A DNA stretch of 64,000 nt from Callorhinchus milii (lineage: Eukaryota). Shown in pieces: positions 13,569-50,324 of this stretch (position 1 is the stretch's first letter; the number at the start of each line of letters is the position of its first letter). The DNA is taken from the NCBI RefSeq assembly GCF_018977255.1, contig NW_024704742.1, positions 137,270,001 to 137,334,000 on the forward strand. Direction: 5' to 3'. The notes beneath the pieces are model-generated. The model was not told where the DNA came from and did no database searches. It saw only the letters and a program-made list of their open reading frames with translations. The position numbers were made by a program, and so were the translations under genes.

Positions 13569-13705
13569 TCTATTCATGGAGATCCTGAATTCCTGCACGG
13601 ACGTGGATGAGATCAAATTCCTGGAGAATGGAGCCTGGTGTCCGATGAGACCCAAGAAGGAGTCGCTGAAACTATCCTCTCAGTGTCCCAAGGTGGAAAG
13701 CACAA
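13569..13705 (+). CDS. PIAS2: PIAS2 exon 10
   Basis: ccag|LFMEILNSCTDVDEIKFLENGAWCPMRPKKESLKLSSQCPKVEST|gtacgt. Confidence 0.92.
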
Positions 13706-15051
13706 GTACGTAGGTCCTGCCAACATCTATGTTGTTCACATCACTACTGCAGGCAGTGGATCAAGGAGCAGTAAAGGGTTCCTACAGCTCGAGTTGTGTT
13801 CAGTCCTCAGCTCTGCGCTGGCATGTTACTCTGCACAAGCCAGTCTCCTGCTCCCTCTTCTCCAGTTCCCCTTCTCATCCCCATCCCCTTTAAAACCCCT
13901 TCTCTTTGAGTACATATCTGAAGATTTATCCTTTTGAAATAGGTTAAGGAGAGATCCAATCGAGGTGTTCAAAATTATGAGTTTTAATAGAGTAGACAGG
14001 GAGAAACGTTTCCACTGGCGGGTGGGTCAGTAACCAGAGGATACAAATTTAAGATGATTGGCAAGAAACTAGAGAGGAGGAGAATTTTATTTTCACACAG
14101 CATTGTGACAGTCTGGAATGCACTACCTGAAAGGGTGGTGGAAACAGATTCCATGACAACTTTCAAAGGAAAATTAGATAGGTACTTGAAAAGGAAAAAT
14201 TTGCAGGGGTATGGGGAAAGAGCAGGGGAGTGGGACTGATTGGTTAGCTCTTCGAAAGATCCGGCAGAGGCACGATGGGCCGAATGGCCTCCTTCTTTGC
14301 CGTAATATGCCATGATTGCCTCAACTACGATTTGTGACAGTGATTTCCACATGCATCCCAATCTCGGCCCCTCACCCAAGTCGTTCTCCCTCTCCTCTCT
14401 GAGCTACTTGATAGCTGTGTTCTCTCTCACTGTTAATGTCCTAGTAAATTTATGCTGCACTCTCTCTCTCTCTCCAATGTTACAGTAGTACGGCAGTACT
14501 TCAAATGTGATCAGATTAAGAGGAAGCTAGATATACACATGAGAGAGAAGGGAACAGAAGAATATGGAATGGAGTAAGGAGTGAGTGGATACTCGTGAAG
14601 TATAAACACTGGAACGAGCTAGTCTGGCTGAACGGCCTGTTTCAGTGTTGTACATTTTATGTAAATCTATATGATTTATCCAAGGTTTTAGATAAATTTA
14701 CAACTTGCATTTATATGGAAGACCTTCCTCTTCGACCGGGCTTAGGGTCACCTCTTCCCTTCCCCCAGCTTGGCTCGTAGTCAGGCTCTGCCACTGTTAA
14801 GCTCTCCGAGACAGTGCCTCGTGTGAAGGGCACTTTATAAGTTGTTGAGTGCAAAATACTCACCTTGTTTGCCTATATAAACCAGGTTAGTATTCCCTGG
14901 TATTATACACATCCCAGCACCTTGGGACGTCCTCTCGACGTGAAAGCTGCTGTATGATAGAATTTTGTTGTTGGTGTTGTGCATACCATAGCGACGCGTG
15001 ACTGACTGACGTGTAAAGCGGGTGTTAAACGTGAGCTGTGTCTAACCCCAG

Positions 15052-15223
15052 CGAGTGTGAGCAAGAGCGGGGCAGCAACGCCAGCCAGCGAGTCCAGCAG
15101 CAGCAAAAAGGTGGAGGTCATCGACCTCACGCTGGACAGCTCGTCATCTGAGGAAGAGGAGGAGCCCCTCCCGAAGAAAAGGTGCCTGTACCCGTCTGAC
15201 ATTGAGGAAAACGCTGGCAAAGG
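15052..15223 (+). CDS. PIAS2: PIAS2 exon 11 (SUMO-interacting motif and acidic tract)
   Basis: ccag|..KKVEVIDLTLDSSSSEEEEEPLPKKRC..GK|gttagt. Confidence 0.92.
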
Positions 15224-16775
15224 GTTAGTCAAGGCGCGTCTTTCCCTCTTGTCTTCTAACACACACGTGAGTTGGTTTTGCCCAAATAACACTCGGTATT
15301 ATACACAAGGCTTTTGGTTACCTCCTGTTCAATTGAGTCATCTGTCTGGGTTCTGTCTGTCTTGGGATTCAATGATCACAGAGGCTAATGGGACGATCTC
15401 AAGGGCCTGGAATGCAAAAGCGGAAGCGATGCATCAGTTGTACAGAGCCTTGGCCGTATCCTATCTGCAGACCGCGTTCAGTTTTAGGCACCCGCACCTC
15501 AGGAAAGATATATCCTCTCTGGGGGGGGGGTTCACCAGAAAGACCCTAGGGATGAAAGGGTCAAATTGTGAGGACAGGTTACATAAACTTGGTCTGTATT
15601 CCCTGGAGTTCGGAAGGTTGAGGGCTGATCTGATTGAGGTGTTTAAAATCATAAAGGGATTCCATAGGGTAGCTGCAGAGAAACTATTTCCTCTGGTGGG
15701 GAATCCAGAACAAGGGGCAATTTGGCGTGGAACCACAGAAGCACTTTTTCAAGTAGTGGATATCTGGCCCCCTGTCTCCCTCTCCCAAAAGGCTGTGGAT
15801 GTTCGATAAATTGGAATTTTCAAGACTACGGTGAACAGATATCTGTTAGGTCAGGGTATCCAGGGATATGGGGCAAAGGTGGGTAAGTGCAGTTGAGGTT
15901 CAGATCAGCCATGATTTAATTGAATTTACTTAGATTGAATTTATAATTATTTTTGGTATCGAAGTCAATTTTGAGGGGTTCAGGAAGCGTGAGTCCCACC
16001 AGGTGTTCGGATCTATAGGGCTGGATTCGTCCGGATAGACGGTGGGCAACCACTTGTCTCTGGGTCAGAAGGTTGTAGATCCATTCACACGACCTGTGTT
16101 GGGTCTCACAGCCCAGGCTGACACTTCCTTGTTGGGAGGAGGGTAATATAATAATAATAATAATAATCCTTGCATTTGATAGAGCACCTTATATCTCGAG
16201 GCGTCTCAAAGCGCCTCACAGAATACATTGTAAAGTGAATTAACTGTATATTTTGTGAGTGAAACGCAGCAGCCAATTACACACAGCAGCGTCCCACAAA
16301 CAATGGTGGATTGAGTGACCAAATTATTATTTTTTTTGAAGGGATTTTTACCCCCGGAAAAGCGATCCGCCAATCGACTAACAACCATGTTCCTACTTAC
16401 TGCTAAGGTAAACAGAGGCGTGTTAACAGAGGGTGGGGAGAACATGGAGAGCCCAGGTTATGGAGGCAGCTGATGTGTGGAGTGATGTGACTTATATTAG
16501 AAAATAATGTTTGGGGATACAGTATACGAGTAATTTGAGACATGACATATAGTAAGTGTAGAATGGCTCGGAAGAACCAGGCAACTTTGGATCTAAGGTT
16601 CCCAAAGCTTCCCGCTGTGTTGTAGACTACACAGTCCATACAGAATTAATCGCTATCGACATCTCCATTACTTTAGCAAGCGACGGCCAGGATAGTAGAA
16701 GGTGGACTAGATGGACCTGGGTCTGTTGTTGTCCATCTGCCCTGTGATGCTATGTGTGTTTACTGTGCTCTGCAG

Positions 16776-16903
16776 GGTCCTCACGTACCAGCCCTCCTCG
16801 CTCCGGGTCCCCCCCGTGGACTCCAGTTTCCTGCCCCAGCTCTCGGACTACCCAGCTGCGTTCCACCACTCGACCATGTCCACACTACCCCCAGAGATAC
16901 ACA
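16776..16903 (+). CDS. PIAS2: PIAS2 exon 12
   Basis: gcag|VLTYQPSSLRVP..DYPAAFHH..PPEIH|gtaagc, phase-1 end. Confidence 0.92.
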
Positions 16904-17029
16904 GTAAGCTGCCGCTGGGGCCCCTTCTCTCCCTTTCATCTCTCCCCTTCTTTCATTCATTCAGCGCCTTGGGATGTCCTCCCGATGTGAAAGGCGCCAT
17001 GCAAATGTAATTTTGTATTGTATTGTGGT

Positions 17030-17435
17030 ACAAATAGGAAGTTCTGCTGAACCTTTACAAGACACTGGTTAGGCCTCAGCTGGAGTATTGCGTCCAATTC
17101 TGGGCACCGCACTTTAGGAAGGATATCAAGGCCTTGGAGAGGATGCAGAGGAAATTTACCAGAATGGTACCAGAGATGAGGGACTTCAGTTATGTGGAGA
17201 GACTAGAGAAGCTGGGATTGTTCTCCTTAGAGCAGAGAAGGTTATGGGTAGTTTTAATAGAGGTGTTCAAAATTATGAGGGGTTTTGATAAGAGTGGAGA
17301 TAGGGAGAAACTGTTTCCATTGGCAGGTGGGTCAGTAACCAGGGGACATGGATTCAAGATAATTGGCCAGAGGGGAGATGAGGAGACATTTTTTTCCACA
17401 GTTAAGGCCTGAAAGAGTGGTGGAAACAGATTCAA
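17030..17435 (+). mobile_element. CR1 LINE 3' fragment cut at the left inversion breakpoint
   Basis: LVRPQLEYCVQFWAP/LEKLGLFSLEQRRL CR1 ORF2 end; stops at ..gaaacagattcaa. Confidence 0.85.
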
Positions 17436-17821
17436 ATTGTGGTCGCTGCTGTGCGCAATCGGTTACCACGTTCACCCACGAAAATACAGTCACTACACTT
17501 TACAGTAAATCCTGCGAAGCCCTTTTGAGACGTCCTCCCACCTACACCAAATGCAGGGATTGTTATTCTCCGCACGTGTGTGTACCTGTAATATGTATGT
17601 GCCTGTTTTTGTGTGTGTGAATAGTCGTGGTAGGAGGTGATGCCCTCTTTATCTCCCACCTTGACTTCTCCAATGCCCTTCTCACCGGTCTCACCAGCTT
17701 TGCCGCCCACACTGAACTCTGTACCCCTATCACCCCAGTCCTCGCCAGGCTCCACTTGCTCCCTATCACAGAACGGATCGAATTCAAGACCCTCTCACAC
17801 GTCTACAGATCCCTTCACGCC

Positions 17822-18835
17822 CTCTCTACCTCTCTAACCTACCTACTCCCCACGCCCTGGCACCTCTCTACCTCTCTAACCTGCCTACTCCCCACGCCCT
17901 GGCACCTCTCTACCTCTCTAACCTGCCTACTCCCCACGCCCTGGCACCTCTCTACCTCTCTAACCTGCCTACTCCCCACTCCCTGGCACCTCTCTACCTC
18001 TCTAACCTGCCTACTCCCCACGCCCTGGCACCTCTCTACCTCTCTAACCTGCCTACTCCCCACGCCTGGCACCTCTCTACCTCTCTAACCTGCCTACTCC
18101 CCACGCCCTGGCACCTCTCTACCTCTCTAACCTGCCTACTCCCACACCTGGCACCTCTCTACCTCTCTAACCTGCCTACTCCCCACGCCCTGGCACCTCT
18201 CTACCTCTCTAACCTGCCTACCCACACCCTGGCACCTCTCTACCTCTCTAACCTGCCTACTCCCCACGCCCTGGCACCTCTCTACCTCTCTAACCTGCCT
18301 ACTCCCCACGCCCTGGCACCTCCCTACCTCTCTAACCTGCCTACTCCCACGCCCTGGCACCTCCCTACCTCTCTAACCTGCCTACTCCCACGCCCTGGCA
18401 CCTCTCTACCTCTCTAACCTGCCTACTCCCCACGCCCTGGCACCTCTCTACCTCTCTAACCTGCCTACTCCCCATGCCCTGGCACCTCTCTACCTCTCTC
18501 ACCTGCCTACTCCCCACGCCCTGGCACCTCTCTACCTCTCTAACCTGCCTACTCCCCACGCCCTGGCACCTCTCTACCTCTCTAACCTGCCTACTCCCCA
18601 CGCCCTGGCACCTCTCTACCTCTCTAACCTGCCTACTCCCCACGCTCTGGCACCTCTCTACCTCTCTAACCTGCCTACTCCCCACACCCTGGCACCTCTC
18701 TACCTCTCTAACCTGCCTACTCCCCACGCCCTGGCACCTCCCTACCTCTCTAACCTGCCTACTCCCCACGCCCTGGCACCTCCCTACCTCTCTAACCTGC
18801 CTACTCCCCACGCCCTGGCACCTCTCTACCTCTCC
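17822..18835. repeat. 42-bp minisatellite (~24 units) within an L2 remnant
   Basis: cctctctacctctctaacctgcctactccccacgccctggca repeated. Confidence 0.95.
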
Positions 18836-19130
18836 GAATCTGCTTACTCCCCACTCCACTACCCGCTGCCTTTGCTTGACTGGCTCTGGCCTCCTGCTTC
18901 CTCGGTCCCCACCACTCCACCATCTGCGCCCGCGTTTTCAGCCACTACGCCCCAACATTCTCCCTCAATCCCTCCGCCTTGCCCCCCCCCCCCCCCACTC
19001 CTTCCCCAGCTTCAGGTCGCGTCTAAAGACCTTCCTCTTCGCCGGCGTTTTACAGTCGCCTCCTCCCCTCTCCATGTCAGGCCGTTAAGCGCTCGGAGAC
19101 GCTACCCCGTGTGAAGGGCGTGAATGCAAG

Positions 19131-21125
19131 TTGTTGTGTCTCTGTGTGCGGGTCTCTGTGCGGGTCTCTGTGTGGGTCTCTGTGTGGGTGTGTTTGTCTC
19201 TCTCTGGCTCTGTGTGTGTGTGTGTCTCTCTCTCTCTCTGTGACAGTGTGTGTCTATTTCTATGTCTGTGTGTGTCTATGCGTCTCTCTGGGTATAGGTG
19301 TGTGTCTTTCTCTGTGTGTCTCTCTGTGGGTGTGTGTGTGTGGGGGGGGGTCTCTGTGTGTGTGTGTGTGTGTGTCTGTCTGTCTCTGTCTGTGTGTTTG
19401 TCGGTGTGTGTCTGTGCATGTGTCTCTCTGTCTGTGTGTGGGTAGGTCTGTGTGTGTGTGTGTGTATCTGTCTCTCTGTGTGTTTCTCTCTGTGTCTGTG
19501 TGTGTGTGTCTGTGTGTGTGTCTCTCTGTGTCTGTGTGTGTGTGTCTGTGTGTGTGTGTGTGTCTGTCTCTCTGTGTCTGTGTGTGGGTAGGTCTGTGTG
19601 TGTGTGTGTCTCTCTGTGTTATTCTCTCTGTGTCTATGTGTGTGTGTGTGTGTGTGTGGGTAGGTCTGTGTGTGTGTGTGTATCTATCTCTCTGTGTCTG
19701 TCTCTCTGTGTCTGTGTGTGTGTGTCTGTGTGTGTGTGTGTCTGTGTGTGTGTCTCTCGCTGTGTCTGTGTGTGGGTAGGTCTGTGTGTGTGTGTGTCTC
19801 TCTGTGTTATTCTCTCTGTGTCTGTGTGTGTGTGTGTGTGTGTGTGGGTAGGTCTGTGTGTGTGTATGTCTCTCTGTGTCTGTGTGTGTGTGTGTGTGTC
19901 TCTCTGTGTGTGTCTCTCTGTGTCTGTGTGTGTGTGTGTTTCTCTCTGTGTCTGTGTGTGGGTAGGTCTGTGTGTGTGTGTGTGTGTGTGGGTGTGTGTG
20001 TGTGGGTCTGTGTGTGTGTGTCAGTATCTTACCTCTTGATGTAGTTTTTCCCGTTTAAGATGTGTTGGAGAAGTGTCACGATGGCAAAGGCAGAGATGAA
20101 GATAAAAAACAGGGATCGGTTCCCCAAAATGTCCTTTCCTGAGCGTTCAGAGTAACCCATTCCCTCTGTGTTTTCTGTGTCCCTGTCCCTGTGTGGGTGT
20201 GTGTGTCCCTGTGTGTGTGTGTGTCTATGTCCCTGTGTGTGTGTCTATGTCCCTGTGTGTGTGTGTGTCTATGTCCCTGTGTGTGTCTGTCCCTGTGTGA
20301 GTGTCTATGTCCCTGTGTGTGTGTCCCTGTGTGTGTGTGTCCCTGTGTGTGTCCCTGTGTGTGTGTCTATGTCCCTGTGTGTCTGTCCCTGTGTGTGTGT
20401 GTCCCTGTGTGTGTCCCTGTGTGTGTGTGTGTCCCTGTGTGTGTGTCCCTGTGTGTGTGTGTGTGTCTGTGTGTGTGTGTGGCTCTGAGCTGCTATTTAA
20501 TAGACACAGACGCATTGAGCCCTTTTCACGTCCGAGCCCTCCTCTCCTCTCCTTCCCTCCCCCCCTCTCCACCCCCTCTCCTTCCCTCCCTCCCCCTCCC
20601 TCTCCTTCCCTCCCCCTCTCCCCCCTCTCCTTCCCTCCCTCCACCCTCTCCCCCTCCCTCTCCTTCCCTCCCCCCTCCCCCCCTTCCCTCCCTCCCACCC
20701 ATTCCCCCCCTTCCCACCCATTCCCCCTCCCTCTCCCCCCCCCCCTCACTCACTCCTCCCCCTCCCTCTCCCTCTCTCCCTCTCCCCCCCTCCCCTCCCC
20801 CCTCTCCCCCCTTCCTCCTCCTCTCCCTCTTCCCCTCCTCCCCCCTCCCTCTCCCCTCCTCTCCCTCTTCCCTCCTCTCCCCCCCCTCCTCTCCCTCTTC
20901 CCCCCTCCTCCCCTCTCCCCCACTCCCCTCTCCCCCACTCCCCTCTCCCCCTCCTCTCCCTTTCCCCCTCTCCCCTCTCCCCCTCCTCCTCCTCTTCCTC
21001 TCCCCCCCCCTCTCCCCTCTCCCCCCCCTCACCCCTCTCCCCCCCTCACCCCTCTCCCCCCTTCCCACCCATTCCCCCCCCTCCTCTCCCCCTCCCCTCT
21101 CCCCCCCTCCCTCTCCCCCCCCCCC
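19131..21125. repeat. GT-rich simple repeats flanking ST8SIA5 exon 1, then a ~590-bp C/T-rich tract (20540-21125)
   Basis: Direct reading. Confidence 0.9.
20033..20160 (-). CDS. ST8SIA5: ST8SIA5 exon 1 (cytoplasmic tail and transmembrane signal anchor), minus strand inside the inversion
   Basis: [42 protein letters not shown] ag|gtaaga; compare human ..DLLGSRTLLFIFICAFALVTLLQQILYGRNYIKR; phase 2 joins exon 2. Confidence 0.93.
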
Positions 21126-22876: not shown

Positions 22877-24902
22877 ACAGTCGTGGATTGAGTGGCCAAT
22901 TTATTATCATTTTATTTATTTATTTTTGATGAGATCATGACTCCCTCAATGCAATCCAATTGACTAACAACCTGGTTCTTACTTACTACTAGGTAAACGG
23001 AGGCATGAGGAGCAAGGAAACTTACCTGCCCAGGAACCCTGCCTACCCAGTTACTCCCTGCCCAGGAAACAAGCCGGGCTTGTGATGCGAGTGCTCGAAC
23101 CACTACACTTATAATAATAATAATAATAATCCTTGCATTTGATATAGCGCTTTTCACGTCTGGAGGACGTCCCAAAGCGCTTCACAGAACACACTGTAAA
23201 GTGAATTGACTGTATATTTGTGGGCGAACGCGGCAGCCAATTGCGCACAGCAATGTCCCACAAACAGTCGTAGGTTGAAAATGACCAATTTATTATTGTT
23301 TTTTGTTTTGGAGGGATTATTATTAGGCTCTGTGTGGAGTAAGGAAACTTGCCCGAGGTTTCGCCCTCTGCCTGGGATTGAACTCAGGTCTCTCACTTGC
23401 AAAGCGAGTGCTCTAACCACTGAGCTACAGGACTCCAGTTCAGGACTCCACATACATCCCACCTACACATGGAAATTCCAGAGACAGATTGTTGGAATGG
23501 GATTTGACACTAAATTACTCAAAGCCCAACCTCCCTTCCTCTGACATTCACCTCCTCTACATGCTCAGCTACCTCAGGGCTGCTGTGTTTCCCTCAGTCT
23601 CGATGGCCCCATCAGCAGTTGAGCGTTCAGCTATTTCACCGCTAACCTCTGCACCTTCTACCCTTCTGTCTCGCCCCCCTCACCTCTGTCTCGCACCCCC
23701 CTTCACCTCTCTGCCTTGCCCCCCCCACCCCTCTGTCTCACCCCCTGCCTTGCTCCCTCTCAACCCTCTGCCTCTTCAACCGTGCTTATGGTTACCTCCC
23801 CCTCCCCTTGCTCGGTGCCAGGCTCCGCCACTGTTAAGCGCTCCGAGACACTATCCCACATGAAGGATGCAATATAAGTTGCGGTTGTTGGATTCGATCT
23901 CACTGATTCCTTTATTCGGGGTCCGACCCCCCCCCCCCCCATCTCTGTGCCGCGCTCCGAGACATTTTATTCCACGTGGAGAGTGGAGGGTGTATAACAA
24001 CAGGACGGCGTTGTGGGTGCACAGTATGGATGGAAATAATCCTCAAGGATTTACCCTAATAGGCCCCTCCTGTGGCCAGTTACAGCACAGCTAAACCTCA
24101 CCAAGGTTCCAATCAAGGTCACGTCAGAAAAATATCTGACGCTTCCAACGCAGTGCTGGGGAGACCTCTGCATTGGTGGAGGTGTTGTCCTTTGGATCGG
24201 GTTATAAACCAAAGTCTTGTCCGCCTGTTCCGGTGGACCTTAAAGATCCCTCGGTGCTATGTGCAAAGAGTGGGGTGGTTTTCTCTGTGTCCCGCCCAAC
24301 AATCCTCCAGATAAAATTGTTTTTTCGCCTCACGGATGTTTGTGGGATAGTGGTGTTGTTGCTGGCAAAACTGGCTGTCACATTTTCCTGCAAAATTCAC
24401 ATAGGGTAACATTTCTGCAGTCCTGTAGCTCAGTGGTTAGTGCACTCGCCACTCGAGTGAGAGACCTGGGTTTGATTCCCGATAGGGCAAAATGTTGGGC
24501 AATTTTCCTTACTCCACACGACTCTATTTACTTAGCAGGAAGTAGGAACCCGGTTGTTAGTCGATTGGCTATCAATGGTGAGCTATACGGTTTTGACTCA
24601 TTAAAATCCAGCAGTTACCCCAATACACACTCTGGGGTCCCCATGCCTTTTGGCCCCTGCCAACCTGCGCCTAATACTGAGTGGAATTAGGTAAGCAGGA
24701 TACATACCTCCACATGGGGGGGGGGGGGAATGGGGGGAAGAGAGAAGTGTGCACTGCATTCCAGTCACGGGAATGTCCACATGTCGGTGGAATGCACGGA
24801 ACTCTCAGTTAGTAATAATCCTTGAATTTGATATAGCGCTCATCATGTCTTTGAGTCGTCTGAAAGTGTTTCATAGAAAACTGTATTTTGTGGGAGCCAA
24901 TT

Positions 24903-25443: not shown

Positions 25444-25479
25444 TCAGACACACACTGACCACAAACCATCATGCAGCAC

Positions 25480-26115
25480 AGGGTGGGTGTGGGAGGGGTC
25501 ACGTGGGGAGCACGTTACGTTGACGCACGACGTCAAGGCGTCGTGGCCCAGGTCTCCCGCTCCGCAAAGCCGAGTGTCCGTGAGGGAGCGCGAGAGGAGG
25601 AGGACAGTGTCCCGGTTGTAATCGGGGAACATCCGCCCACATGGTCAGTGATAATCCCCGCCGACGGCCCGAGCGGGCAGCGGGGCGTCCCGTCCGCCAT
25701 CCCAGGCCGCCATTTGTGACCGATGATGCTTCGTTTTCGGGATAAACTTAACCGTCGGCGGTCGGGCGCGCGGATGGACGGACGGACGGCCGCTTCCCCG
25801 CGCGGTTCCCGGCCTCTCGCCGCCGCCGCCGCCGGAGGGGCGGGCGGGCGGTGACGACGCTGCGGCCGCTTCATCAGGAGATTGCGGTGCACCGCGCGGA
25901 AAGCTTTCGTGGTTCGGTTGCGGCGGCCCCGCGCGCGCAGGGGCGGGGAGGGGGTCGAGGTATCCAGCAATTGCCGGACCCCCCCTCCCTCAGGTCCCGC
26001 CCGCTTCCCCGCCGCTGATTGGCTGGCAGTGACGTCATTGATCACCGAGCCCCCCCTGCTTTGATTGGCTGCTCGGGGTGTCGATCAACCCCTCCGCCCC
26101 GCCCACTCAGTCTTT
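25480..26115. promoter_or_regulatory. CpG-island promoter
   Basis: Dense CpG; E-box CACGTG 25500, ATF/CRE-like sites 25521-25535, YY1 GCCGCCATTT 25706, reverse CCAAT 26018 and 26064, CRE TGACGTCA 26030, GC boxes 26094-26104, Inr-like TCAGTCT 26107. Confidence 0.8.
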
Positions 26116-27132
26116 TGTCCATTACATTACATTTCATTGTGATTTCCTTGTGATGGTAAATGGAATAATAGGGCCTTTGAGGTCTTGACACAGTGACTTG
26201 TTATTAGATTAAACCGCATCGCGTCCCGGGGCCGAAAACCCCGGGATACAATCGGAGCCACTTGCGAGACTCTCGAGGGCGGGGGGGAGTGGGGGGGAAA
26301 CTGTTCTGTTGCGTTCTTCTCCAAATATAATGCTGATAGTCCGCGCATTTGGTGTACCGCGTCTTCGAGGCGTCTCAACGCGCTTCGCAGAATAGACTGT
26401 GAAGTGAATTGACTGTATATTGGTGGGCGCGAGGCGGCCGCCAATTGCGCACAGCAGCGTCCGCCACACACGGTCGTGGATTGAGTGACCGAATTATTAT
26501 TGTTGCCTTCAACTACACAGTCACTGCACTTGACAGCGGTTGCCCGTGTAAGCGTTTGGGACGTTTGGGCATTTTATAGGTGCTGTATCGCGTCAGTTTG
26601 TGAATCTCAGCGCTGGTATGAATGAATCTCAGTGACGATCGATGCTTTGTGGATTTCTGGCAGGACATTGTTCAGGAGTCAGGGCCGCACACCATTGCTC
26701 AGACTTGAGACCTGCACTTGGAAAACTGCCTGAAGGATCCAGAGGAGGATCTCGCTCGCCTCCACGTCAAGGTACAAGTTAGTGAGACACGGCTGTCAGT
26801 GCAGTACACGGCACACGCCCATCGCCATTGTGAGGGTGTCTCTCCCCGTCAATAAGTCTTTCGGTAAGCGGGGGGTGGGGGGGGCAAACCAAAACTGACA
26901 GTGGTGTGACCCTATAAATAGTGCTGTGACCCTACAAAAGGTGGTGTGACCCTGAATACAGTGGTATCAGCCCACAAGCAGTGCTGTGAGCCCACAAGCA
27001 GTGCTGTGAGCCTATAAACAGTGCTGTGACCAGGTTAGCAATGTCAGGGTGGCAGTCAGTCAGGCGAGGCCTCAGTTTAACATCCCCAGGAAACCCATCA
27101 CTGAGCCCATGAGTGTCCAAACTAGAGGTTTG

Positions 27133-27291
27133 AGCGGAGCCGCTGGTGGGGTTGAACGCCTGCAGTTCCCGGTGTGGGTGTGTGTGTCTCCGTCGTACAC
27201 TCTGCTGTGGCTGCTGAGAGAGAACGTGCAGCTCATGGGCTCCTGAGCCCTGACTAGTGGGCCTGGGGGATATAAATTGCTGCAAACAATG
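27133..27291 (+). ncRNA. H/ACA snoRNA, SNORA5-like, copy 1
   Basis: Two hairpins, H box AGAGAA (27219-27224), ACA (27286-27288); 3' pocket UCAUGGG/AUA(U)AA complementary to 18S AAUUAU-Psi-C-CCCAUGA. Confidence 0.75.
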
Positions 27292-27411
27292 GATTGTACC
27301 AGTCTGGTCACCCTGCGGGTGGGGGGAGGGGGAGGGGATTCCATGTGGTGATAGTATTTCTAGCCGGTCGTCGGCTAAAGTTTAGTGGAAGGTTCACTGG
27401 GCTCAGTTGAT

Positions 27412-27450
<39 letters not shown>

Positions 27451-28782
27451 CTCTGGCTCGACTGGTTGTGTGTTGACTCCACTGTTTCTGTTAGTGACCT
27501 GTACAGTCACCTCGGCTCGGGTGGCCTCACAATGAGCACCAGAGAGCAGTCCAGTCGGACATCCATAACTCACGCTGCCCCCTGACACCACGCACAGCGG
27601 TGAAGGGCATATCATCAGTGTCTGGAGCTGCTTCACAGCTGTAACCTGTGGCTGGAATCTTCCCAGGTGGATGCGACCACTTTTGTTTCCTCCGCCCATC
27701 TCTTGGCTCTTGCCAACCTGCGCCTGATATTCTCCGGAACCAGGTAACCAGGTAACGACTGTGCATTCCATTCCAATAATCTATCTCTGGGATTTCCATG
27801 TATAGGTGGGATCCCGCACCAGGCTTCGTGACCACATCACTCCCACCCTCGCTCACCTCCACTGGCTCCCCATCCGCCAAAGGATTGAATTCAACATCCT
27901 CATCCTCACCTACAAGGCCATTCATGGCCTTGCTCCCTCCTACCTCTCCGACCTACTATCCCCCTATCTACCTGACCGTACCCTCCGTTCCTCTGGCTCT
28001 GGTCTGCTCCACATTCCCCGCCCCAACCGCCCGACCATCGGTGGCCTTCAGCCTCTCAGCCCCGAGGCTCTGGAACTCCATCCCCCAGTGCCTTCACCGC
28101 TTCCTCCCTTTCCACCTTCAAGGCCGGTCTCAAGACCTTTCTCTTTGACCGAGCCTTCAGCTCCCTCTCGACTCTCTACCCCTCCTCGCTCCCTCCCTTC
28201 CCTTCCCCTCCCTGATCCATCCCCCCTAGTAGTCCAATCCCTACCGTCCAGCGCCATTGGGCTCCTCCCGACGTGAAAGGCGCTCTATAAATGGAATCTT
28301 GTTGTTGTTGTTGTTGTTGATGCAGGGAATTCTCAGTTTGGTTTGGAGACTCTTAAACAACGGTGATGGGTTTCTGCATGTGTCAGGCACCCGGCTGACC
28401 AAAAAGAAAATTGTCTCTTCTCTTCCCACAGTGCCCGGAGCAGACGGTTGGAGGAATCTGCGTGCTTCAGCAGGAACATGGGCCTGTGTTTGCAGAGTCG
28501 GAGGTGGTTAGGATGCCCATCGCCATTGTGAGGGTGTCTCTCCCCGTCAATAAGTCTTTCGGTAAGCGGGGGGGTGGGGGGGGCAAACCAAAACTGGATC
28601 CCGCCTGACAGTGGTGTGTCCCTATAATCAGTGGTGTGACCCTACAAGCAGTGCTGTGAGCCTATAAGCAGTGCTGTGACCAGGTTAGCAATGTCAGGGT
28701 GGCAGTCAGTCAGGCGAGGCCTCAGTTTAACATCCCCAGGAAACCCATCACTGAGCCCATGAGTGTCCAAACTAGAGGTTTG

Positions 28783-28941
28783 AGCGGAGCCGCTGGTGGT
28801 GTTGAACGGCTGCAGTTCCCGGTGTGGGTGTGTGTGTCTCTGTCGTACACTCTGCTGTGGCTGCTGAGAGAGAACGTGCAGCTCATGGGCCCCTGAGCCC
28901 TGACTAGTGGGCCTGGGGGATATAAATTGCTGCAAACAATG
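28783..28941 (+). ncRNA. H/ACA snoRNA, SNORA5-like, copy 2
   Basis: Near-identical to copy 1 at offset 1650; H box 28869-28874, ACA 28936-28938; a U>C change keeps upper-stem pairing. Confidence 0.75.
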
Positions 28942-29479
28942 AATTGTACCAGTCTGGTCACCCTGCGGGTGGGGGGAGGGGATTCCATGTGAAGTGATAG
29001 TATTTCTAGCCGGTCGTCGGCTAAAGTTTAGTGGAAGGTTCACTGGGCTCAGTTGATAGCTCTCTCTCTCTCTCTCTCTCTCTCCCCCTCTGGCTCGACT
29101 GGTTGTGTGTTGACTCCACTGTTTCTGTTAGTGACCTGTACAGTCACCTCGGCTCGGGTGGCCTCACAATGAGCACCAGAGAGCAGTCCAGTCTGACATC
29201 CATAACTCACGCTGCCCCCTGACACCACGCACAGCGGTGAAGGGCATATAATAATAATAATAATAATAATCCTTGCATTTGATGTAGCGCTTTTCACGTC
29301 GGGAGGACGTCCCAAAGCGCTTCACAGAACACACAGTAAAGTGAATTGACTGTATATTTGTGGGCGAACGCGGCAGCCAATTGCGCACAGCAATGTCCCA
29401 CAAACAGTCGTAGATTGAAAATGACCAATTATTATTGTTTTTGGTTTTGGAGGATTATTATTAGGCTCTGTGTGGATAA

Positions 29480-32604: not shown

Positions 32605-33190
32605 CTGTAATAGAGCGACAAAGAGAGAGAGAGAGAGAGAGCAGTGAGCAGAGACAAGAAATAATAATAATCCTTGCGTTTCAAATAGGGTCTTATCAAG
32701 CGCTTCACAGGATATATGTGAAGTGAACGGACTGTGAATATATGTGGGTGAAACACAACGACCCATCTACAGGGCTGGAAAGAACCACAGCCCTCACCTT
32801 GTGCCCTCACAGATTACTCTCCAAACTCAAACTAATTCAGCAGCAATTTTACATCGATAGCGTGCGCTTCACATCAGAACTCCCAGGGCAACACTGAATA
32901 AAGGGCCCCCCCTAACCCTCGCGATAGCACTGACCGTCATATCCACCATCGACAATCAGGTTACCTTTACGCGTTACATTTGTGAGCCTCTCAGCCCCCA
33001 CCCTCAGGAACACCATCTCACAGTGCCTCCGCCTCGCTCCCTCTCTCGCCTGCTTGAAGACCCACCTCTTCGGTCACCACCTCACCCCCACCCTCCCTGT
33101 CCTTCACCCTTCTCTGATCCCAACCCCCAGTTCAGGTCCAAATCCCTGACCGTCCAGCGCATTGGGTCATCCTCCCGACGTGAAAGGTGC

Positions 33191-33655
33191 TGTGCAAATG
33201 TAACGTGTTGTTGTGTGCAAATGTAACGTGTTGTTGTGTGCAAATGTAACGTGTTGTGTGCAAATGGAACGTGTTGTGTGCAAATGTAACGTGTTGTGTG
33301 CAAATGTAACGTGTTGTGTGCAAATGTAACGTGTTGTGTGCAAATGTAACGTGTTGTGTGCAAATGTAACGTGTTGTGTGCAAATGCAACGTGTTGTGTG
33401 CAAATGCAACGTGTTGTGTGCAAATGTAACGTGTTGTGTGTAAATGTAACGTGTTGTGTGTAAATGTAACGTGTTGTTGTGTGTAAATGTAACGTGTTGT
33501 GTGCAAATGTAACGTGTTGTGTGCAAATGCAACGTGTTGTGTGCAAATGCAACGTGTTGTGTGTAAATGTAACGTGTTGTGTGTAAATGTAACGTGTTGT
33601 TGTGTGTAAATGTAACGTGTTGTTGTGTGTAAATGTAACGTGTTGTTGTTGTTGT
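33191..33655. repeat. 20-23-bp minisatellite in PIAS2 intron 13
   Basis: gtgttgtgtgcaaatgtaac repeated. Confidence 0.95.
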
Positions 33656-33676
33656 GACTGCGGTGCTCACACCCAC

Positions 33677-33714
33677 CTGAGCATCATTCTGAAACAGAGA
33701 GAAAAAGTCCAGAT
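33677..33714 (-). CDS. PIAS2: PIAS2 exon 13 (38 nt), on the minus strand inside the inversion
   Basis: Reverse complement: tttctccag|at ctg gac ttt ttc tct ctg ttt cag aat gat gct cag|gtgggt = (N)LDFFSLFQNDAQ; compare human GLDFLSLIPVDPQ; phase fits exons 12 and 14. Confidence 0.88.
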
Positions 33715-34011
33715 CTGGAGAAAGAGGAAATTTGTACCAACATGAGAAAGTACAAGATTTCAGCCGCGGTTACTCCATTTCCTGCCCCACACTACTCCCC
33801 ACAACTGCCCCAACTCCCACTCTACTCTCCACTCCTTGCCCACGTCTGGGACTGCTCCCACCTACCCCCTCAGCCACATTTCCCCCTTCCCCCCATGACT
33901 CCTGTGCTCCCCCAGCTCTGACTGTGGCTGCCAGCTCCCACATCCCCGATATTATAATATTCCAATTCAACCTTTAAGTAAATCTGCCCCACACATCACA
34001 ACCCAGTTGCT

Positions 34012-34178
34012 CTTAGAAATCTATTGCAGCACAGAAGGAGGCCATTAAGCCCATCGTGCCTGTGTTGGCTCTTTGGAAGAGCTACCAACTCGTCCCACTC
34101 CCCCCCCGCTCTTTCCCCATATCCTTGCAAGTTTCTCCTTTTCAAGTACCCATCTAATTCCCCTTTTGAAAGTTGTTA
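34012..34178 (-). mobile_element. Remainder (3' end) of the same CR1 at the right breakpoint
   Basis: Minus strand starts taacaactttcaaaagggg.. and ends with the tail ..aatggcctccttctgtgctg; colinear with the intact copy at ~14140-14310. Confidence 0.85.
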
Positions 34179-34958
34179 CAGCCATGAAGTGAATGAGTAA
34201 TGTTTTTTCTGGGGGGGGGGGTTGTTGGCCAGGACACGGGTGGGGGGAAGGGGTGAAACTCCCTTCTGCTTTTGAATAGAGCAGTGGTGATCTCTAACGT
34301 GCACCTGAAGAGGCCCAGACGGGACCTCAGTTTAACGTCTATTCCGAAGGACGGCATCTTCAGTAACGCAGTGCTCCCCCCACCCCCCCACCCAGCACTG
34401 AGCTGGAGAGTCCGCCGCGACTGTGAGCACAAGGTCCTGATACATGTGTGAACCCACAACCTAACAGACAGAGACAGAGAAACACAGACCTATGGACGCG
34501 CAGACATAAAACACACATACTCCACCTAAAGTTCCTCCTACACTCCCTGTTAGACCTCTTACTGACTCGCTTACGTTCACACCCGCAAGTTTAGACTCGC
34601 CAACAGTGGAAACAGCTCATCAACATCCACCTTATCGAACCTTTAGGATCTTTAAAGTCTACCTGTATAGGCACATTTAGGAACTCGGCTGAACATCACA
34701 GCTGAAGGACAGCGCAGCGCTCGCCCAGTACTACACTGGAGCATCAGCCAAGACCGCACAGGTTTAAAGCTCCGACATGGGGGGCTTGAACCCACAAACT
34801 TCTGACTCGAGACGAGACGAGAGTGCTACTGACCGAGCCTAAACAACCTAAACAACCTTGATATCCACACTAATTGTGTATACCAACAGTCGGATATTAA
34901 TTTTGTATTGTATGTGTCCACATCTCTCTCTTCCTCTCTCTCTCTCTGCCTGTCCATG

Positions 34959-34990
<32 letters not shown>

Positions 34991-35344
34991 CAATCCTGAA
35001 CTGATCTGAGATCCCAAATTCCACCCTGTCTCAGCCACTTTTGGGTGAAGGTTTAAGATGACACAGAATCGTGGGAAAAACTCTTTTAAATTCAGTCTCA
35101 GTACCTGAAGCCGCTTTTTCAGGCAAATTTTTAAAAATTTTAACAAGTGGGTTTTGTGACGAAGGGCGGATTTGAGAATGTTCCACAATTTGCAGGCAAT
35201 TTCCACAAATTTTAAGACAACACACATTCCCCCCATGACTTGGCTGTTGCCAACCTATTATGCCTAATACTCTCTGGAATTAGGATTTTCATCAATATAA
35301 AACCTTTACTAAATTACCTCATACAGTATACGCAATTTTATTTT

Positions 35345-35700
35345 GCTCAGCCGGGTGTCTGACATGTGGAAACCCGTCTGACACATGTGGAAACCCATCA
35401 CCGTTGCTTAAGAGTATCCAAACCAAACCGAGGTTGAATTCCCTGCATCCCACCTACACACGGAAATCCCAGAGATAGATTATTGGAATGGAAAGCGCTC
35501 TCTCACTCTCTCCCTGGAGGGACACATCCTGTTTACCTAATTCTGGAGAGTATTAGGCACAGGTTGGCAAGAGCCAAGGCTTGGGGGACCCCAGAGTGTG
35601 TGTTGGGGTAACTGCTGGAATCTAACCACCTAAAGCCACACAGCTTGGCCATTGATATCGCTGTCTGACAAGCTTTCCTGTTTCTTGTCCAGCGAGGACC
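35345..35700. mobile_element. Unclassified ~350-bp interspersed repeat
   Basis: Recurs at ~3720-3920, 9100-9428, 24590-24790, 27700-28400 (split), 42210-42365, 53060-53300, 61390-61690. Confidence 0.7.
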
Positions 35701-35883
35701 ACCAGACCCATTATATATTGTACAGTATATGTTGCCTCATTATACAAAAGACAATATCAGAAAGAGTACAGTGTAGATTGCTAGAATGTTCCCAGAATAA
35801 GTGGATAGAGCAATCAAGAAGGATTGGACGGGTCAAAGATTTTTGTCTCTGTACTTGAGATGATTTTTGTCTCTGTATTTGTG

Positions 35884-36200
35884 GAGTCCTGTAGCTCAGT
35901 GGTTAGAGCACTCGCTTTGCAAACGAGAGACCTGAGTTCAATTCCAGGAAGAGGGCGAAACCTTGGGCAAGTTTCCTTACTCCACCCAGAGCCTAATAAT
36001 AATCCCTCCAAAACAAAACAATAATAAATTGGTCATTTTCAATCCACGACTGTTTGTGGGACACTGTTGTACACAATTGGCTGCCGCGTTTCACCCACAA
36101 ATATACAGTCAATTCACTTTACAGTCTATCCTGTGAAGCGCTTTGAGACGTCTAGAAGACGTGAAAAGCACTATATCAAATGCAATGATTATTATTATTA
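35884..36200 (+). mobile_element. tRNA-derived SINE, representative full copy of a family with dozens of copies in the window
   Basis: A box TAGCTCAGTGG, B box GTTCAATTCC, shared body, tail atcaaatgcaa(g)gattattatt; close copies at 23111-23436(-), 29250-29479(-), 30745-31000(+). Confidence 0.9.
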
Positions 36201-39200
36201 TTTATTATTTATCCTGTGGCACTATTGGAAAAGAGTAAGGAGTTTCTCTCTCCCAGTGTCCTGGCCAACAATCCGACAGATGAAATTGATCATACGCTTC
36301 ATCGCTAATTGCCTACGGATAAACACACAGTCATTATCCTGTGAAACGCTTTGAGGCATCCTCCTGACATGAAAGGCACTGTATGAAATGTAAGACTTCT
36401 GTATAGGCACATATGGCATCTCGGCTTAATATTCTAAACTGACAGGTCAGGTTTCAACCTTCCCTTCATCCCTCCTTGTTCCACCTCTGCTGACTTCTCT
36501 CTCCTCTCTCACTACAGAAGGCTATATTTTTGTAATTTGTGGGCAAATGTAGTTGTTTCGATGATAAATGTTTGCTAATATTCTTTATTTATTTAGTATT
36601 CGTGCACGGTGCTATCACCATTGTGATGTGGGGAATGATGAGTGTGGGAACAGATCACTGGACCTGAGATCAGGAGAGCAAAGTGCTGGGAGCCAGTGAA
36701 CAACACAGGTCGCAATAATTTACAAGCTGATTTCTATAACAGCTTAACCCAGATAGAGACGCACAACGCAACGCAACACAACACACAGCCAGTCTGAGCA
36801 TACAGCATCTGCCCTACAATCACAGCTCACTCACACAGGGTCTCACAGCTTCACAACAGCTCACTCTTACACTGCGTCTCTCGCGGTGAGGGTCTCACAG
36901 CTCCAAAATAATGATGGGAGTCACTGAATGGAGGTGGTTGGTGGTGGGTGGGTGGGGGGGGGATTAAGCAAGTACATTCACAGAATGCGCTTAATAGGGG
37001 CTTAAAGCCAGGGAAAGGAGAGGTGAGGGATTTTGGGAGCAAATTCCTGCACACCAATGATTTATTACAGGGTATAACAGTGGTGGGTGGGAAGGGGCTG
37101 ATTTTTTTTTGGGGGGGAAGGCTAATGTGATGGTTTGGGGTGGCTGGGGCTGGTATAAAAGTGGTGGTTCGTGGAGGGCGAGGTGGGGCTGGTATAACAG
37201 GGCTGGTGTAAATGCACTGATACTAGTGAAAAGTCCCATTTCATCTGCTCCCTTATAATAATAATAATAATCCTTGCATTTGATATAGCGCTTTTCACGT
37301 CGGGAGGACGTCCCTTCTAAACACCACCATCCCCCCCCCCCCCCCCCCACTCATCCTCCCGGCGCAGCGATGCTCTGTTTCTTAATTGAGTCCTAGTGTG
37401 CAAGCCTCAACCACCTTCCTGGTGTACACCTGCCACGTCTTCAGTCCCAAATTCTCCTCTGTGTAAAGGAACGGTTCCTGGTATCTGGGCTGACCCTGTG
37501 GCCTCTTGTTTTGCCGTCTTGCCACGTCTGAGTGCATTATCTGTCTCATTCGCATTAACATCTTACACATCTCGACACGCTCCCCCTCTCAGACTTCACC
37601 TCATGACTGAAGAGGGGCTTAAAGCCAGAGAGAGGAGCCCTGACTTAGTTAATCCTTTAAAGTTCATCCCTTTAACACTGGCGGTGCGTCTCAAGTGACC
37701 GGAGCGGGTACCAGACCAGAACTGGACCAATGTTTATCTGTATTTTGATTGGCTGCTGTTGGGGGGGGGCGAGGTTGTGTGGAGGATGACTGGTTGGTGG
37801 CATTGCTTGGCGTTGATTGGTTGGTGGCATTGCTTGGCGTTGATTGGTTGGTGGCATTGCTTGGCGTTGATTGGCTGTTGTCAGTGTGGTTGGGGGTTGG
37901 GTTTGAGTGTATTGATTGGTCGCTGGTTTGTGACTGTGTGTTGATTGGTGTGTTGGGGTAGAGCAGGTCAGTGATTGGTTGGCTTTCCATCACACAGAGG
38001 ACACAGTTCAAGATCCTGGTCCTCATCTCCAAAGCCCTTCATTGATCCCCCACTATCTCTGCGACCCCCTAACCCCCTGCCAATGTTCCCTCTCCCTCCA
38101 CTCCATGGGCACCAGCCTGCTTCACGTCCCCTGCCTCACCCGGCCCACCATTGGTTGGCAGGCCTTCAGGCTCTCTACCCCCACCCTCTGAAACTTCATC
38201 CCAGAATCCCTCCGTCTCTCCCCCTGCCTTGCCTCCTTCAAGACCTTCTCAAGACCCTCCTCTTCGATCATGCCTTCGATCACCCTCCCACCCCTACCCT
38301 CCCCACCCTCCACCACTCCTGATCCCAACCACCAGTTCGGGTAAGGATCCCTGACTGTCCAGCGCCTTGGGACGTCCTCCTGACCTGAAAATCGCTGTGT
38401 AAATACAATTTGTTGTTGTTGTAGGTGGGGGTTGATTGGTTGGCAGTTGTGGCTTGGGAGTATATGCTTGGCGGATTCGAAATAACTTGTGATGGATTGG
38501 GTTTGTGGTCGGTTAACTTGTGAATAAAAATAATCCTTGCATTTGATACATTGCCTTATCACGTCTTCGAGACGTCTCAAAGCGCTTCCCAGAATATACT
38601 GTAAAGCGATTTGACTGTATCTTTTGTGGGCGAATGTTGTGTCGTTCGATCATCCACATATATTCTGCGAAGCGCTTTGAGACGTCTCAAAGATGTGATA
38701 AGCCGCTATATCCTTATAATAAAACTACGATGTCATTACACTTTACTGCAAGACTGTGTGAAAAGCTTTGAGACATTTGGATGTGATAATGTGACGCGTC
38801 AAATGTGAGGATTCTTATAATAATCTTATTCTGTTTGCAGAGTACGAATAAGATTCATTATATTAAGTACAACAACAATTAACAAATTACACATCCCCAT
38901 TGACATAGGTGAATGACTCAAAACTTTTAAGGAGTTAAATGGGAAAAGATAAAGAAGACCCTTTGGCCCATTTGATCTCATTCCCTCCAGAATATCTCAC
39001 CCAACCATCCCCCCCACATCACAACATCAAGGTGTTTTTTAAATGAGTCCTGGTGTCCTGATCTCAACCGCCATTCCTGGTAATCTACCCTTTGGTAAAG
39101 AAAAACGTAGAATTGTACAGCACGGAAGGAGGTCATTCGGCCCATCACGCTCTTTGAAAGAGCTATCCAAATGAATCCCACTCCCCTGCTCTCTCCCCAT

Positions 39201-40494
39201 AGCCCTGCAAATTTGTCCTCCCCGAATATCTATCCACTTCTCTGTTGAAAGTTGTTCTCGACTCTGCTTCCATCACCCTTTTCTCCTCATCTCCCTTCTG
39301 TTTGTTTGAGAACTTTGTGGTGTCTGTCCTGAAATTGCCCTTTGCAATTCTAAACCTATGTTCTCTTGTTCTGTCTCAGTGCATCTCAATGTATTGTTCT
39401 GAGTTTCATTTTTCAATCATATTTCTTGAAAAATTCTATCTAAGATTCTCGCTGAGATAATGATAGTAATTAAAAGAAAAGAATAAAAACAGTTACTCAA
39501 TCCACGACTGTTTGTTGGACACTGCTGCTACGATTGGCTGCTGTGTTTCACCCACAAATATATAGTTAATTCACTTTACGGTATATTCTGTGAAGCGCTT
39601 TGAGACGTCTCGAAGACGTGTTAAGGCCCTATAAATGCAAGGATTATTGCATGATCACAGAGGGAAGAGAGGGAGAGGGAGAGAGAGAGAGAGCGAGAGA
39701 GGGAATTGGGGAGAGCTCTACAGAACAGTGAAGTGGTTGGAGGCTTGGACACTGGTGGTGGGGATGGAGGAGGCGGTGGGTCAACAACAACAATTTGGAC
39801 TTAAAGAGCAGCCCTCAGGCACATAGAGTCTCAGAGAGCTTGACAGTGGTGGAGCACGATGCCAAGCTGGGGGGAAGGGGTGGGGAGGGGGAGGTGTGAC
39901 CATAGGCACAGTCGAAGAGTAAGGTCTTCAGGCATGACCTGAAGATGGGGAAGGGAGGGATGGAGGGAAAGTGTTCCGTAGTTTGAGGGAGTAGTAGCTG
40001 AAAGCGCGGCCACCGAGGGACATGCAGGAGGCCGGAGCCGGTTGAGTGGAGGAGCGGATAGTAGATTGAGGGGTAAGCTGGTCAGGGAGGTGTCAGGGCA
40101 TGAAGGGATTTGAAGACGAGTGTGAGGAGAGAAGACGTGGGGGGGGCGAGGAGTGGCGTGTAGAGAAATCTCCCCCACTCAGGACTCACCTGGGACAAGA
40201 CTGGCCCAAGATTGCCCCAAAGTGTATGTTTGTACATTGAGTTCTATGGAGGTTAAAGAGTAAAGGTTTGCCTCATTCTCTTGCCAGTGAGCTCCACAAT
40301 AGATGGCAGAATGTGGAGAATAATGTGACTGATAACGACACGGATTTCGGAGGTCGGAAGGCTGGCAGGGATGTGCATCGCAGGTACCTTCACAAACGGC
40401 TGAAGAGCGATATTCACTGCAGCTTTGTTTTAACTATCATAATCCTTACATTATCCTCCCTGTGGCTGGAGGTAAGCGGGTTTATCAATATTTT

Positions 40495-41327
40495 AAGAGA
40501 AAGAGAGTGGTAAAGGGGAATGTGGACCCATTTAAAGACAGGTGTAGGTGAGACTATAATGAACAATAAGGAAATGGCAGGCTTGTTGAATGAACACTTT
40601 GCTTCCGTTTTCACATTAGAGGAAGAGATCAGAATAATAGCGGTACAAGGGAATCCAAAAATAAGCCAAAGTGAATTTAATATATATAAATACATGGTAA
40701 TGGAGAAGATAATGGGACTAAAGATAGACTAATCTCCAGGACCTGATGGATTCCACCTCTGGGTATTAAAAGAAGTAGGGGAAGAAATTGCAGATGTGTT
40801 AGTTATAATTTTCCAAAGCTCTCTATAATTCAGGAATTGTGCCCTTGGATTGGAGAATTGCAAATGTCACTCCACTATTTATGAAGGGAGGGAGAGACAA
40901 GCCAGGTAACTACACACCTGTCACCTTAACTTCAGATGTGGGGAAGTTACTGAAATTTCTCATCAGGGACAGAGTGGCTGAGCATGTGGACAAGTATGAG
41001 CTAATCAAAGAGAGTCAGCGTGGATTAGCGAAAGGTAGGTCATGTCTGACGAATATAATTGAATTTTTTGTGGAGGTCATGAACATGGTGGATAAGAGAG
41101 TGTCTATGGATGTTGTCTATATGGACTTCCAGAGGCATTCGATAAGGTTCCACACCAGAGGTTATTAGCAAAAATAAAAGCGCATGGAATTGGTTTGACA
41201 TGGCTCGGCAATTGGCAGGAAAGAGTGTAGGGTTAGGGGGAATGCTCTCTGATTGGTGAGACGTGACAAGTGGTGTTCCCCAGGGGTCTGTACTGGGGCC
41301 TCAGCTTTTCACCACATATATACACAT

Positions 41328-41360
<33 letters not shown>

Positions 41361-41765
41361 AATGACTTGGATGAAGGAATAAAGAGTTTGATATCTGAAT
41401 TTGCAGATGACCCAAAGTTAGAAAGCACAGTAACTTGGACAGATTAAGTGAGTGGGCAAAACTGTGGCAGATGGAATTCAATGTGGGGAAGTGTGAGATC
41501 ATCCACTCTATATCCAAAAATAGCAAAACAGAATATTTTCTAAATGTTGAGAAACTGAGAACTGTGGAGGAGCAACGGGATTTGGGTGTCCACGTACACA
41601 AATCACTAAAAACAAGCTCACGGGTACAAAAAGTTATCAAGAAGGCTAATGGGATGTTGGTCTTTATCTCAAGGGGCCAGGAATATAAAGGAAGGAAATG
41701 ATGCTTCAGCTGTATAGAGCTTTGGTCAAACCCCACCTGGAGACTGTGTTCAGTTTTGGGCACTT
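40495..41765 (+). mobile_element. Decayed CR1 LINE ORF2 (reverse transcriptase) fragment
   Basis: DWRIANVTPLF.KG..PGNY.PV.LTS, SGVPQGSVLGP, FADD and W...WQMEFNVGKC motifs with stops and frameshifts. Confidence 0.9.
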
Positions 41766-50310: not shown

Positions 50311-50324
50311 GTGAGTTGATGTCA

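Follow-up and report, generated by a model that had tools for sequence, protein, structure and literature searches.

The window, a stretch of 64,000 nucleotides of the Callorhinchus milii genome, contains two recent copies (A and B) of a normal-sized, SNORA5-like rRNA guide of the H/ACA class, in which one of the two targeting pockets has been lost. On the homology of its exons, the gene that hosts this pair is a decayed, intron-keeping paralogue of EEF2 adjoining PIAS2. The interpretation that we favor, and consider reasonably probable, is that this fossil is now a non-coding host, an intron of which yields a 131-nt H/ACA RNP that would guide pseudouridine formation at U1581 of 18S rRNA through its 3′ pocket, with the 5′ hairpin acting as a scaffold.

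Both near-identical units are laid out as hairpin, H box (AGAGAA), hairpin and ACA, as the preliminary description of this DNA had stated. The likely RNA is 131 nt in length, occupying 27161-27291 (copy A) and 28811-28941 (copy B) on the forward strand, a size adopted because the Rfam match begins at 27161 and 28811. In copy A, the 5′ hairpin is found at 27162-27214, the H box at 27219-27224, the 3′ hairpin at 27227-27284, and the ACA at 27286-27288; the boxes of copy B are at 28869-28874 and 28936-28938, and within the RNA they correspond to residues 59-64 and 126-128. The H box, which fits ANANNA and lies in the hinge, and the ACA, 3 nt from the predicted end, are perfect in A, B, and a third copy (C) described below. 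A and B differ at only 2 of 131 positions, a loop base and an upper-stem pair (C-G in B, U-G in A), and both differences preserve the structure.

Running Rfam in E-value mode reveals SNORA5 (RF00392) as the top family for both copies, at 25.6 bits (E = 0.012) for B and 23.0 bits (E = 0.052) for A. The suggested relationship to SNORA5 therefore holds as to the best family and falls short as to the score, since both values lie below the gathering score of 30. Most of the match comes from the 3′ hairpin, with the 5′ hairpin contributing its lower stem. At the gathering level, the whole window gave no snoRNA match, solely the heads of tRNA-derived SINEs; these seven tRNA matches (23372-23427, 24419-24490, 35885-35952, 45013-45070, 54531-54588, 60365-60421, and 63443-63515) belong to elements repeated across the window, some copies of which are 96-97% alike. 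Folded separately, each half of the RNA forms one hairpin, giving the order hairpin-hinge-hairpin-tail; the unconstrained minimum-energy fold of the whole RNA differs from this two-hairpin form. The 3′ hairpin is more stable than its dinucleotide shuffles (B, z = -2.7, 4/300 as good; A, z = -1.9, 17/300), whereas the 5′ hairpin shows no excess stability (z = -0.2 to -0.4). The latter is a 53-nt, almost continuous, closed structure rich in G-U pairs and UG and without an open pocket; both the fold and the Rfam alignment bear out the earlier remark that it is UG-rich and lacks the U1238 pocket of SNORA5.

The 3′ hairpin possesses the lower stem UGCAGC/GCUGCA, the upper stem, and the pocket UCAUGGG..AUAUAAAUU previously read from the sequence, the top of the pocket being 16 nt before the ACA. 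In copy A, this predicted pseudouridylation pocket spans 27233-27278 (forward strand). The 18S, 5.8S, and 28S rRNAs and U2 of this same genome were used as targets. The left arm (27233-27239) forms seven Watson-Crick pairs with the 3′ flank of 18S U1581, and the right arm, from 27270, forms three pairs (A-U, U-G, A-U) with the 5′ flank, followed by mismatches; relative to SNORA5, the right arm carries two extra bases at its top. Judged by position and context, U1581 would be the equivalent of human U1625, and the proposal that the pocket is aimed at this residue gains support from the seven pairs of the left arm and three from the right. The rRNA context given in the preliminary description (AAUUAU) is not that of this genome, which at U1581 reads GGAACUGU-U-CCCCAUGA in the matched sites, GGAACTGTTCCCCATGA being read at 19/19 of the 18S sites matching a degenerate pattern. 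In the 18S gene (L041:1235-3058, contig C328), the hairpin preceding the target, at ~1565-1585, differs at three bases from the human sequence, and does so in 19/19 matched copies.

SNORA5 targets U1238 and U1625 of human 18S rRNA and U1200 and U1583 in Xenopus (PMC6984369, supplement), and the minimum for an H/ACA guide is given as 8 bp, with an uneven split between the arms allowed (PMC6049503). The U1581 duplex, with 7+3 = 10 pairs including one G-U at a distance of 16 nt from the ACA, exceeds this minimum, and both pairs flanking the unpaired dinucleotide, a criterion of the same source, are kept. Among the top sites shown for 18S, 5.8S, 28S, and U2, U1581 is the sole one with an uninterrupted 7-bp left-arm duplex. 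The right arm does no better than three to four pairs against human-type 18S and is uncompensated for the three substitutions of this organism. Shuffled arms equaled the best Watson-Crick count in rRNA or U2 in 12/40 and 6/40 cases, so the scan alone is no proof of U1581, and what supports the site is that it fits the SNORA5 family assignment; the pairing is present, and guiding activity at U1581 is what it predicts. The U1238-equivalent of 18S is conserved in this genome, and the family arm GUCAAAUU is absent from the 5′ hairpin. That this hairpin might have another target or none had been suggested earlier, and in rRNA and U2 its arms indeed pair no better than chance allows (17/40 shuffles as good).

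The exons around copy A reveal the nature of the host. Exon 1 of the host transcript (25557-25643, forward) lies in a CpG island at 25.5-26.5 kb (CpG o/e 1.1-1.2) and closes with ATG|GT, as exon 1 does in intact EEF2; sequence resemblance between the two is weak (5/300 shuffles as good). The exon at 26664-26771 (forward) corresponds to decayed EEF2 residues ~536-571 (tblastn E = 1.2e-7), has intact splice sites, and is identical to the intact paralogue at 73/108 bases; its piece 26709-26771 gave 16 PDB matches, each weak, and 16/16 are elongation factor 2. An in-frame TGA is present in the assembly at 26706-26708, where contigs from runs X4 and X10 read TCA and those from X1 and X6 do not. Positions 27531-27648 (forward) hold a frameshifted remnant of the exon that encoded residues ~690-750, with 77/122 columns identical and a local alignment score of 57 versus a shuffle maximum of 32; it has CG instead of AG at the acceptor position and is skipped in spliced contigs. 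This remnant begins 240 nt past copy A, and its 5′ part recurs at 29168-29252, after copy B. The exon for residues 751-794 (28432-28561, forward; phmmer E = 5.5e-7 to eEF2, tblastn E = 8.6e-11) is one codon short with intact splice sites, and its last 45 nt recur at 26817-26863. One X4 contig is without 2 nt at 28537, the frame of the fossil thus varying among samples.

The three exons after exon 1 match intact EEF2 on contig C21, two of them with identical boundaries. No remnant of the exons for residues 572-689 and 795-858, nor of the 5′ coding exons, was found in 84 kb, and most of the 858-residue gene is gone. By exon order, the native position of the snoRNA is the intron preceding the ~690-750 exon. 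Searches of Pfam, of protein homologues, and of the ESM Atlas left the host exon unrecognized. The possibility that the host exons were decayed TBRG4 was dropped, as they match eEF2. The flanking exons are EEF2-derived or belong to PIAS2, and the location differs accordingly from the TBRG4 introns, as had been anticipated.

Contigs from four of 24 sequencing runs were placed on 25450-28562, X4, X6, and X10 being classed as RNA by the guess of the tool alone. One X10 contig joins 25557-25642, in the first exon, to 26663-26769, in the next. A GT..AG joint, 26771|28432, which removes the 1660-nt intron 26772-28431 (forward) together with copy A, occurs in X4 and X10, which come from two studies, and is not among the joints of X1. 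These joints indicate a forward-strand transcript from the CpG island that is spliced across copy A, the splice sites on both sides of which are intact and used. Copy B follows the splice donor at 28562, with an assembly gap downstream at 29480, and may lie in an unspliced part; copy C lies, by sequence, between PIAS2 exons. Over the snoRNA, contigs extend without a break from 26934 to 27326, mostly carrying B-type letters and reaching far beyond 131 nt, which would reflect a longer RNA or DNA, no discrete RNA end being visible. Run X1 has no cover at 26858, and its contig departs from the window sequence at 26818, leaving the left junction of unit A unconfirmed there. Contig depth is ~7-17 in unique sequence and 36-43 in the unit, figures which are no measure of copy number. 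In X4 and X6, contigs carry 368 other letters in place of the 167 at 27326-27494, at high depth in X6, so that more variants exist than the assembly shows; the 368-nt stretch may come from a unit or allele missing from the assembly, or from an overlapping transcript, the PIAS2 3′ UTR for example. In humans, snoRNA expression is associated with intact H/ACA boxes and a transcribed host (PMC10234308).

Comparison of the fossil with intact EEF2 reveals identity at 120/160 of codon positions 1 and 2 versus 38/78 at position 3 (Fisher p = 8e-5). Since the first two positions are more alike than the third, the copy would have coded for protein long after the duplication and decayed later. Four-fold sites are identical at 6/21 between fossil and EEF2 and at 13/43 between PIAS2 and the PIAS gene of C21, both being saturated. 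The order on C21 is PIAS, EEF2, and a DAPK-type kinase; the PIAS2-EEF2 arrangement of the fossil locus mirrors this intact PIAS4-EEF2 pair, and teleost pias4 genes adjoin eef2 too (PMC8657546). From two PIAS-EEF2 pairs of like silent-site age we infer the vertebrate whole-genome duplications, of which the EEF2 fossil is probably a relic. Intact EEF2 carries SNORD37 in an intron (54.9 bits, L161:7646-7712, minus strand), and no SNORA5-like RNA was found in its matching intron or elsewhere in the gene. One of its exons (C21:3990738-3990844; L161:5738-5844, minus) is 107 nt long, one base short of frame in a run of C, which is probably a sequencing slip.

A DNA search of the genome found copies in four places, a lower bound by this method: A, B, copy C in the window (matched over 6364-6521), and, on contig C17, a stretch matching the 3′ half at 82%. 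A reverse search returned the same four, as did a pattern search among its 20 matches, the remaining 16 being near the control level of 10. With four places, the unit is not a high-copy transposon fragment, the alternative named in the preliminary description. Copy C (6382-6512, forward) equals copy B over all 131 nt and is part of a 188-nt duplicated piece (6364-6551), in sense orientation within the PIAS2 intron 5831-7054; neither a poly(A) tail nor a target-site duplication was seen. PIAS2 was identified from the best PDB match and the domains. The fourth copy (C17:5030473-5030618; L004:1501-1645, minus strand) looks decayed, since its lower stem is broken and a perfect H box is missing; it begins 467 nt past the stop codon of a gene which we take to be GATD1. 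The 5′ arm is reminiscent of an eroded canonical U1238 arm, and the likeness of short flanking stretches to those around the window copies suggests an older DNA-level duplication. A pattern scan of metagenomes found no relatives.

The repeat, with a unit that runs from exon end through intron, snoRNA, and exon remnant to exon start at a spacing of 1698 bp, is a tandem duplication (26817-29252, forward) with units at 26817-27615 and 28515-29252. The duplicated segment is ~800 bp; 12 substitutions across 724 aligned bases, and several indels, separate the two units. The tandem arrangement is thus a recent DNA duplication and no feature of the snoRNA. The first 45 nt of unit A would be the leftover of an earlier, mostly deleted unit, and at its far end the second unit runs into a young SINE, beyond which is a 25-N gap. 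Minisatellites are found at 17821-18857, 26895-27030, 50321-51342, and 58594-59258, with periods of ~42, 20, 55, and 44 nt, respectively; the copy number of the 20-nt repeat is unequal between units A and B.

The assembly around the pair requires comment. PIAS2 exons are on the forward strand at 2860-16903, and its last exon is on the minus strand at 32604-32421. Exon 1 of what we take, from its Pfam family, to be ST8SIA5 is on the minus strand at about 20165-20030, with the other exons forward from 45774. A block from ~17000-20000 to ~33000-45700, containing the 25-N gap at 29480, is inverted relative to its genes, and this inversion is probably a misassembly. Once the inversion is undone, the fossil falls in the PIAS2-ST8SIA5 interval and is arranged head to head with ST8SIA5. 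A penultimate PIAS2 exon was not recognized, and the inversion breakpoints were looked for and not found.

The pattern searches found no further SNORA5 candidate in the assembly. A pattern for a two-pocket SNORA5, combining 5′ and 3′ arms, gave 24 matches, none H/ACA-like on inspection; a 5′-end pattern gave 110 matches versus 104 in the control, and none of the 30/110 inspected was convincing; and among the 20 matches of the pattern permitting a compensated pocket the known copies alone were convincing by eye. A genome search with RF00392 gave 0 matches with 46/21082 candidates scored, and missed the window's own copies, which makes it uninformative on absence. The human SNORA5 genes are hosted by introns of TBRG4. 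TBRG4/FASTKD4 was not found with Pfam RAP, FAST_1, and FAST_2, which did find five other FASTK-family loci; 150 kb beyond a CCM2-type gene contained neither TBRG4 nor a snoRNA. A weak match on contig C2 was set aside as chance. TBRG4 may have been lost, unassembled, or missed, and its absence from the organism is not implied.

The history that we envisage is as follows. A duplication of chromosomal scale, dating back to the separation of PIAS2 and PIAS4, would have left a second EEF2 beside PIAS2. This gene then lost most of its exons and its frame, held on to its promoter in a CpG island and to a handful of exons that can still be spliced, and would have become a non-coding snoRNA host. The SNORA5-derived RNA occupies the intron ahead of the exon for residues ~690-750; a recent tandem duplication produced A and B, and a short piece of DNA brought copy C to the PIAS2 intron. 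By the established route of H/ACA biogenesis, the intron released by splicing would be trimmed to an RNA of ~131 nt bound to dyskerin, NOP10, NHP2, and GAR1. Its 3′ pocket would guide pseudouridylation of U1581 by 7+3 pairs, the closed UG-rich 5′ hairpin would be a scaffold, and U1238 would no longer be guided. The dead but spliced EEF2 duplicate may survive only to make this small RNA. A bolder version, which we put forward tentatively and would not bet on, holds that a whole-genome-duplication copy of EEF2, dead as a protein gene, has been kept solely for an intron with the only SNORA5-type guide of its lineage, a guide which has lost its U1238 pocket, acts by a minimal duplex on a changed 18S helix, and is now moving by local duplication into a second host, PIAS2.

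The main competitor, in our opinion unlikely yet deserving of consideration, is that the copies are decaying snoRNA pseudogenes with a pocket which, being disused, did not track the changes in 18S, the real SNORA5 being unassembled or unrecognized and transcription of the fossil being run-off from a bidirectional CpG island. The lost 5′ pocket, the sub-threshold Rfam scores, and the uncompensated right arm are in its favor, TBRG4 may be absent from the assembly given the three Pfam searches, and the C17 copy, with its imperfect H box and broken stem, shows that decayed copies exist. Yet perfect boxes, stems, and a 7-nt left arm persist while roughly one in four of codon positions 1 and 2 is gone from the adjacent exons; on either side of copy A, splice sites remain intact and in use; and patterns admitting a compensated pocket, with 20 and 24 matches, yielded no further candidate. 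We regard as improbable that the RNA is expressed but retargeted, either by a register shift toward 18S U1074, which the two extra bases topping the right arm would permit, or through a new task of the 5′ hairpin, such as protein binding or Cajal-body targeting. U1074 would form 6+4 = 10 Watson-Crick pairs, 14 nt from the ACA, against nine for U1581, the shift costs merely 1.2 kcal/mol (G-U closure), and antisense-element switching is documented in vertebrate snoRNAs (PMC6984369). Against this, 6/40 shuffled arms equal U1074, the Xenopus/human guide table contains no 18S-U107x or U111x entry, the 5′ arms, in the scan of rRNA and U2, do no better than the shuffles cited above, and the link of UG tracts to Cajal bodies comes from C/D scaRNAs.

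Two further readings concern the unit itself, and to both we assign very little weight. The preliminary description envisaged a 159-nt RNA from 27133 with an extended 5′ hairpin of ~85 nt. The constrained fold of copy B is indeed one long irregular hairpin, and the 5′ end of the RNA is a predicted one; but copy A folds into a three-way junction, so that the 159-nt versions disagree, and the lower stem of the family, UGCAG/CUGC, is found at 27161 and 27211. Moreover, copy C shares just 18 nt upstream of the 131-nt start, lacking the first 10 nt, and 2/4 of the A/B differences fall within the 28 extra bases; neither the 85-nt hairpin nor the 159-nt size is supported, and 53 and 131 nt, respectively, are the likelier figures. 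As little credible is that the tandem pair is an assembly artefact of a single gene. The second unit does end ~230 nt before the 25-N gap, in a block inverted relative to its neighbors; against this stand the 12 substitutions and several indels between the units, the extension of A through the remaining part of the EEF2 exon remnant, and the presence of B-specific letters, including a 32-nt stretch unique to B, in independent contigs of X6 and X10. Both units look real.

By comparison with SNORA5/ACA5 (RF00392), the RNA is alike in size (131 versus 134 model positions), lower stems, H and ACA boxes, and the target of the 3′ pocket, and unlike in that a closed UG-rich stem replaces the U1238 pocket, the right arm has two extra bases, and the score is below the cut-off. 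Its hosts, the EEF2 fossil and PIAS2, differ as well from the human host, TBRG4. It is, on account of cut-off, U1238 pocket, and host, a SNORA5-derived variant and not a canonical member; by itself the snoRNA is a modest variant, and the host is the interesting part. Non-coding snoRNA hosts of the SNHG type, such as GAS5 and SNHG1, resemble the fossil in having a spliced Pol II transcript, a CpG island, short exons with a stop codon, and an intronic snoRNA as the likely product, whereas the exons here are still recognizable as EEF2 coding exons, so that the origin is directly readable. Intact EEF2 is itself a snoRNA host in this genome, with SNORD37 in its intron and no SNORA5-like RNA. Loss of a pocket and change of host are documented among vertebrate snoRNAs (PMC6984369). 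No report of an EEF2 fossil as snoRNA host, or of this locus, was found in the part of the literature searched, which does not imply that it is unpublished.

lncRNAs are known as fossils of protein-coding genes, for example XIST from LNX3 (Hezroni et al. 2017, PMC5577775), and others derived from dead protein genes are described in PMC5644071. Like the former, the EEF2 fossil lost coding where a paralogue remains and kept transcription and splice sites; unlike them, its proposed retained function is the release of a snoRNA, and the words "snoRNA," "host," and "EEF2" do not occur in the main text of PMC5577775. The origin of non-coding snoRNA hosts is usually untraceable because their exons are unrecognizable; here the EEF2 exons, the PIAS4-EEF2 twin, and splicing persist. 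If correct, the locus would preserve, in legible form, an intermediate stage by which a translation-factor paralogue turns into a non-coding snoRNA host. It would be a testable case of a dead duplicate whose intron is the reason for its retention, and a natural experiment on the minimal guide-substrate duplex, the rRNA target having undergone an uncompensated change.
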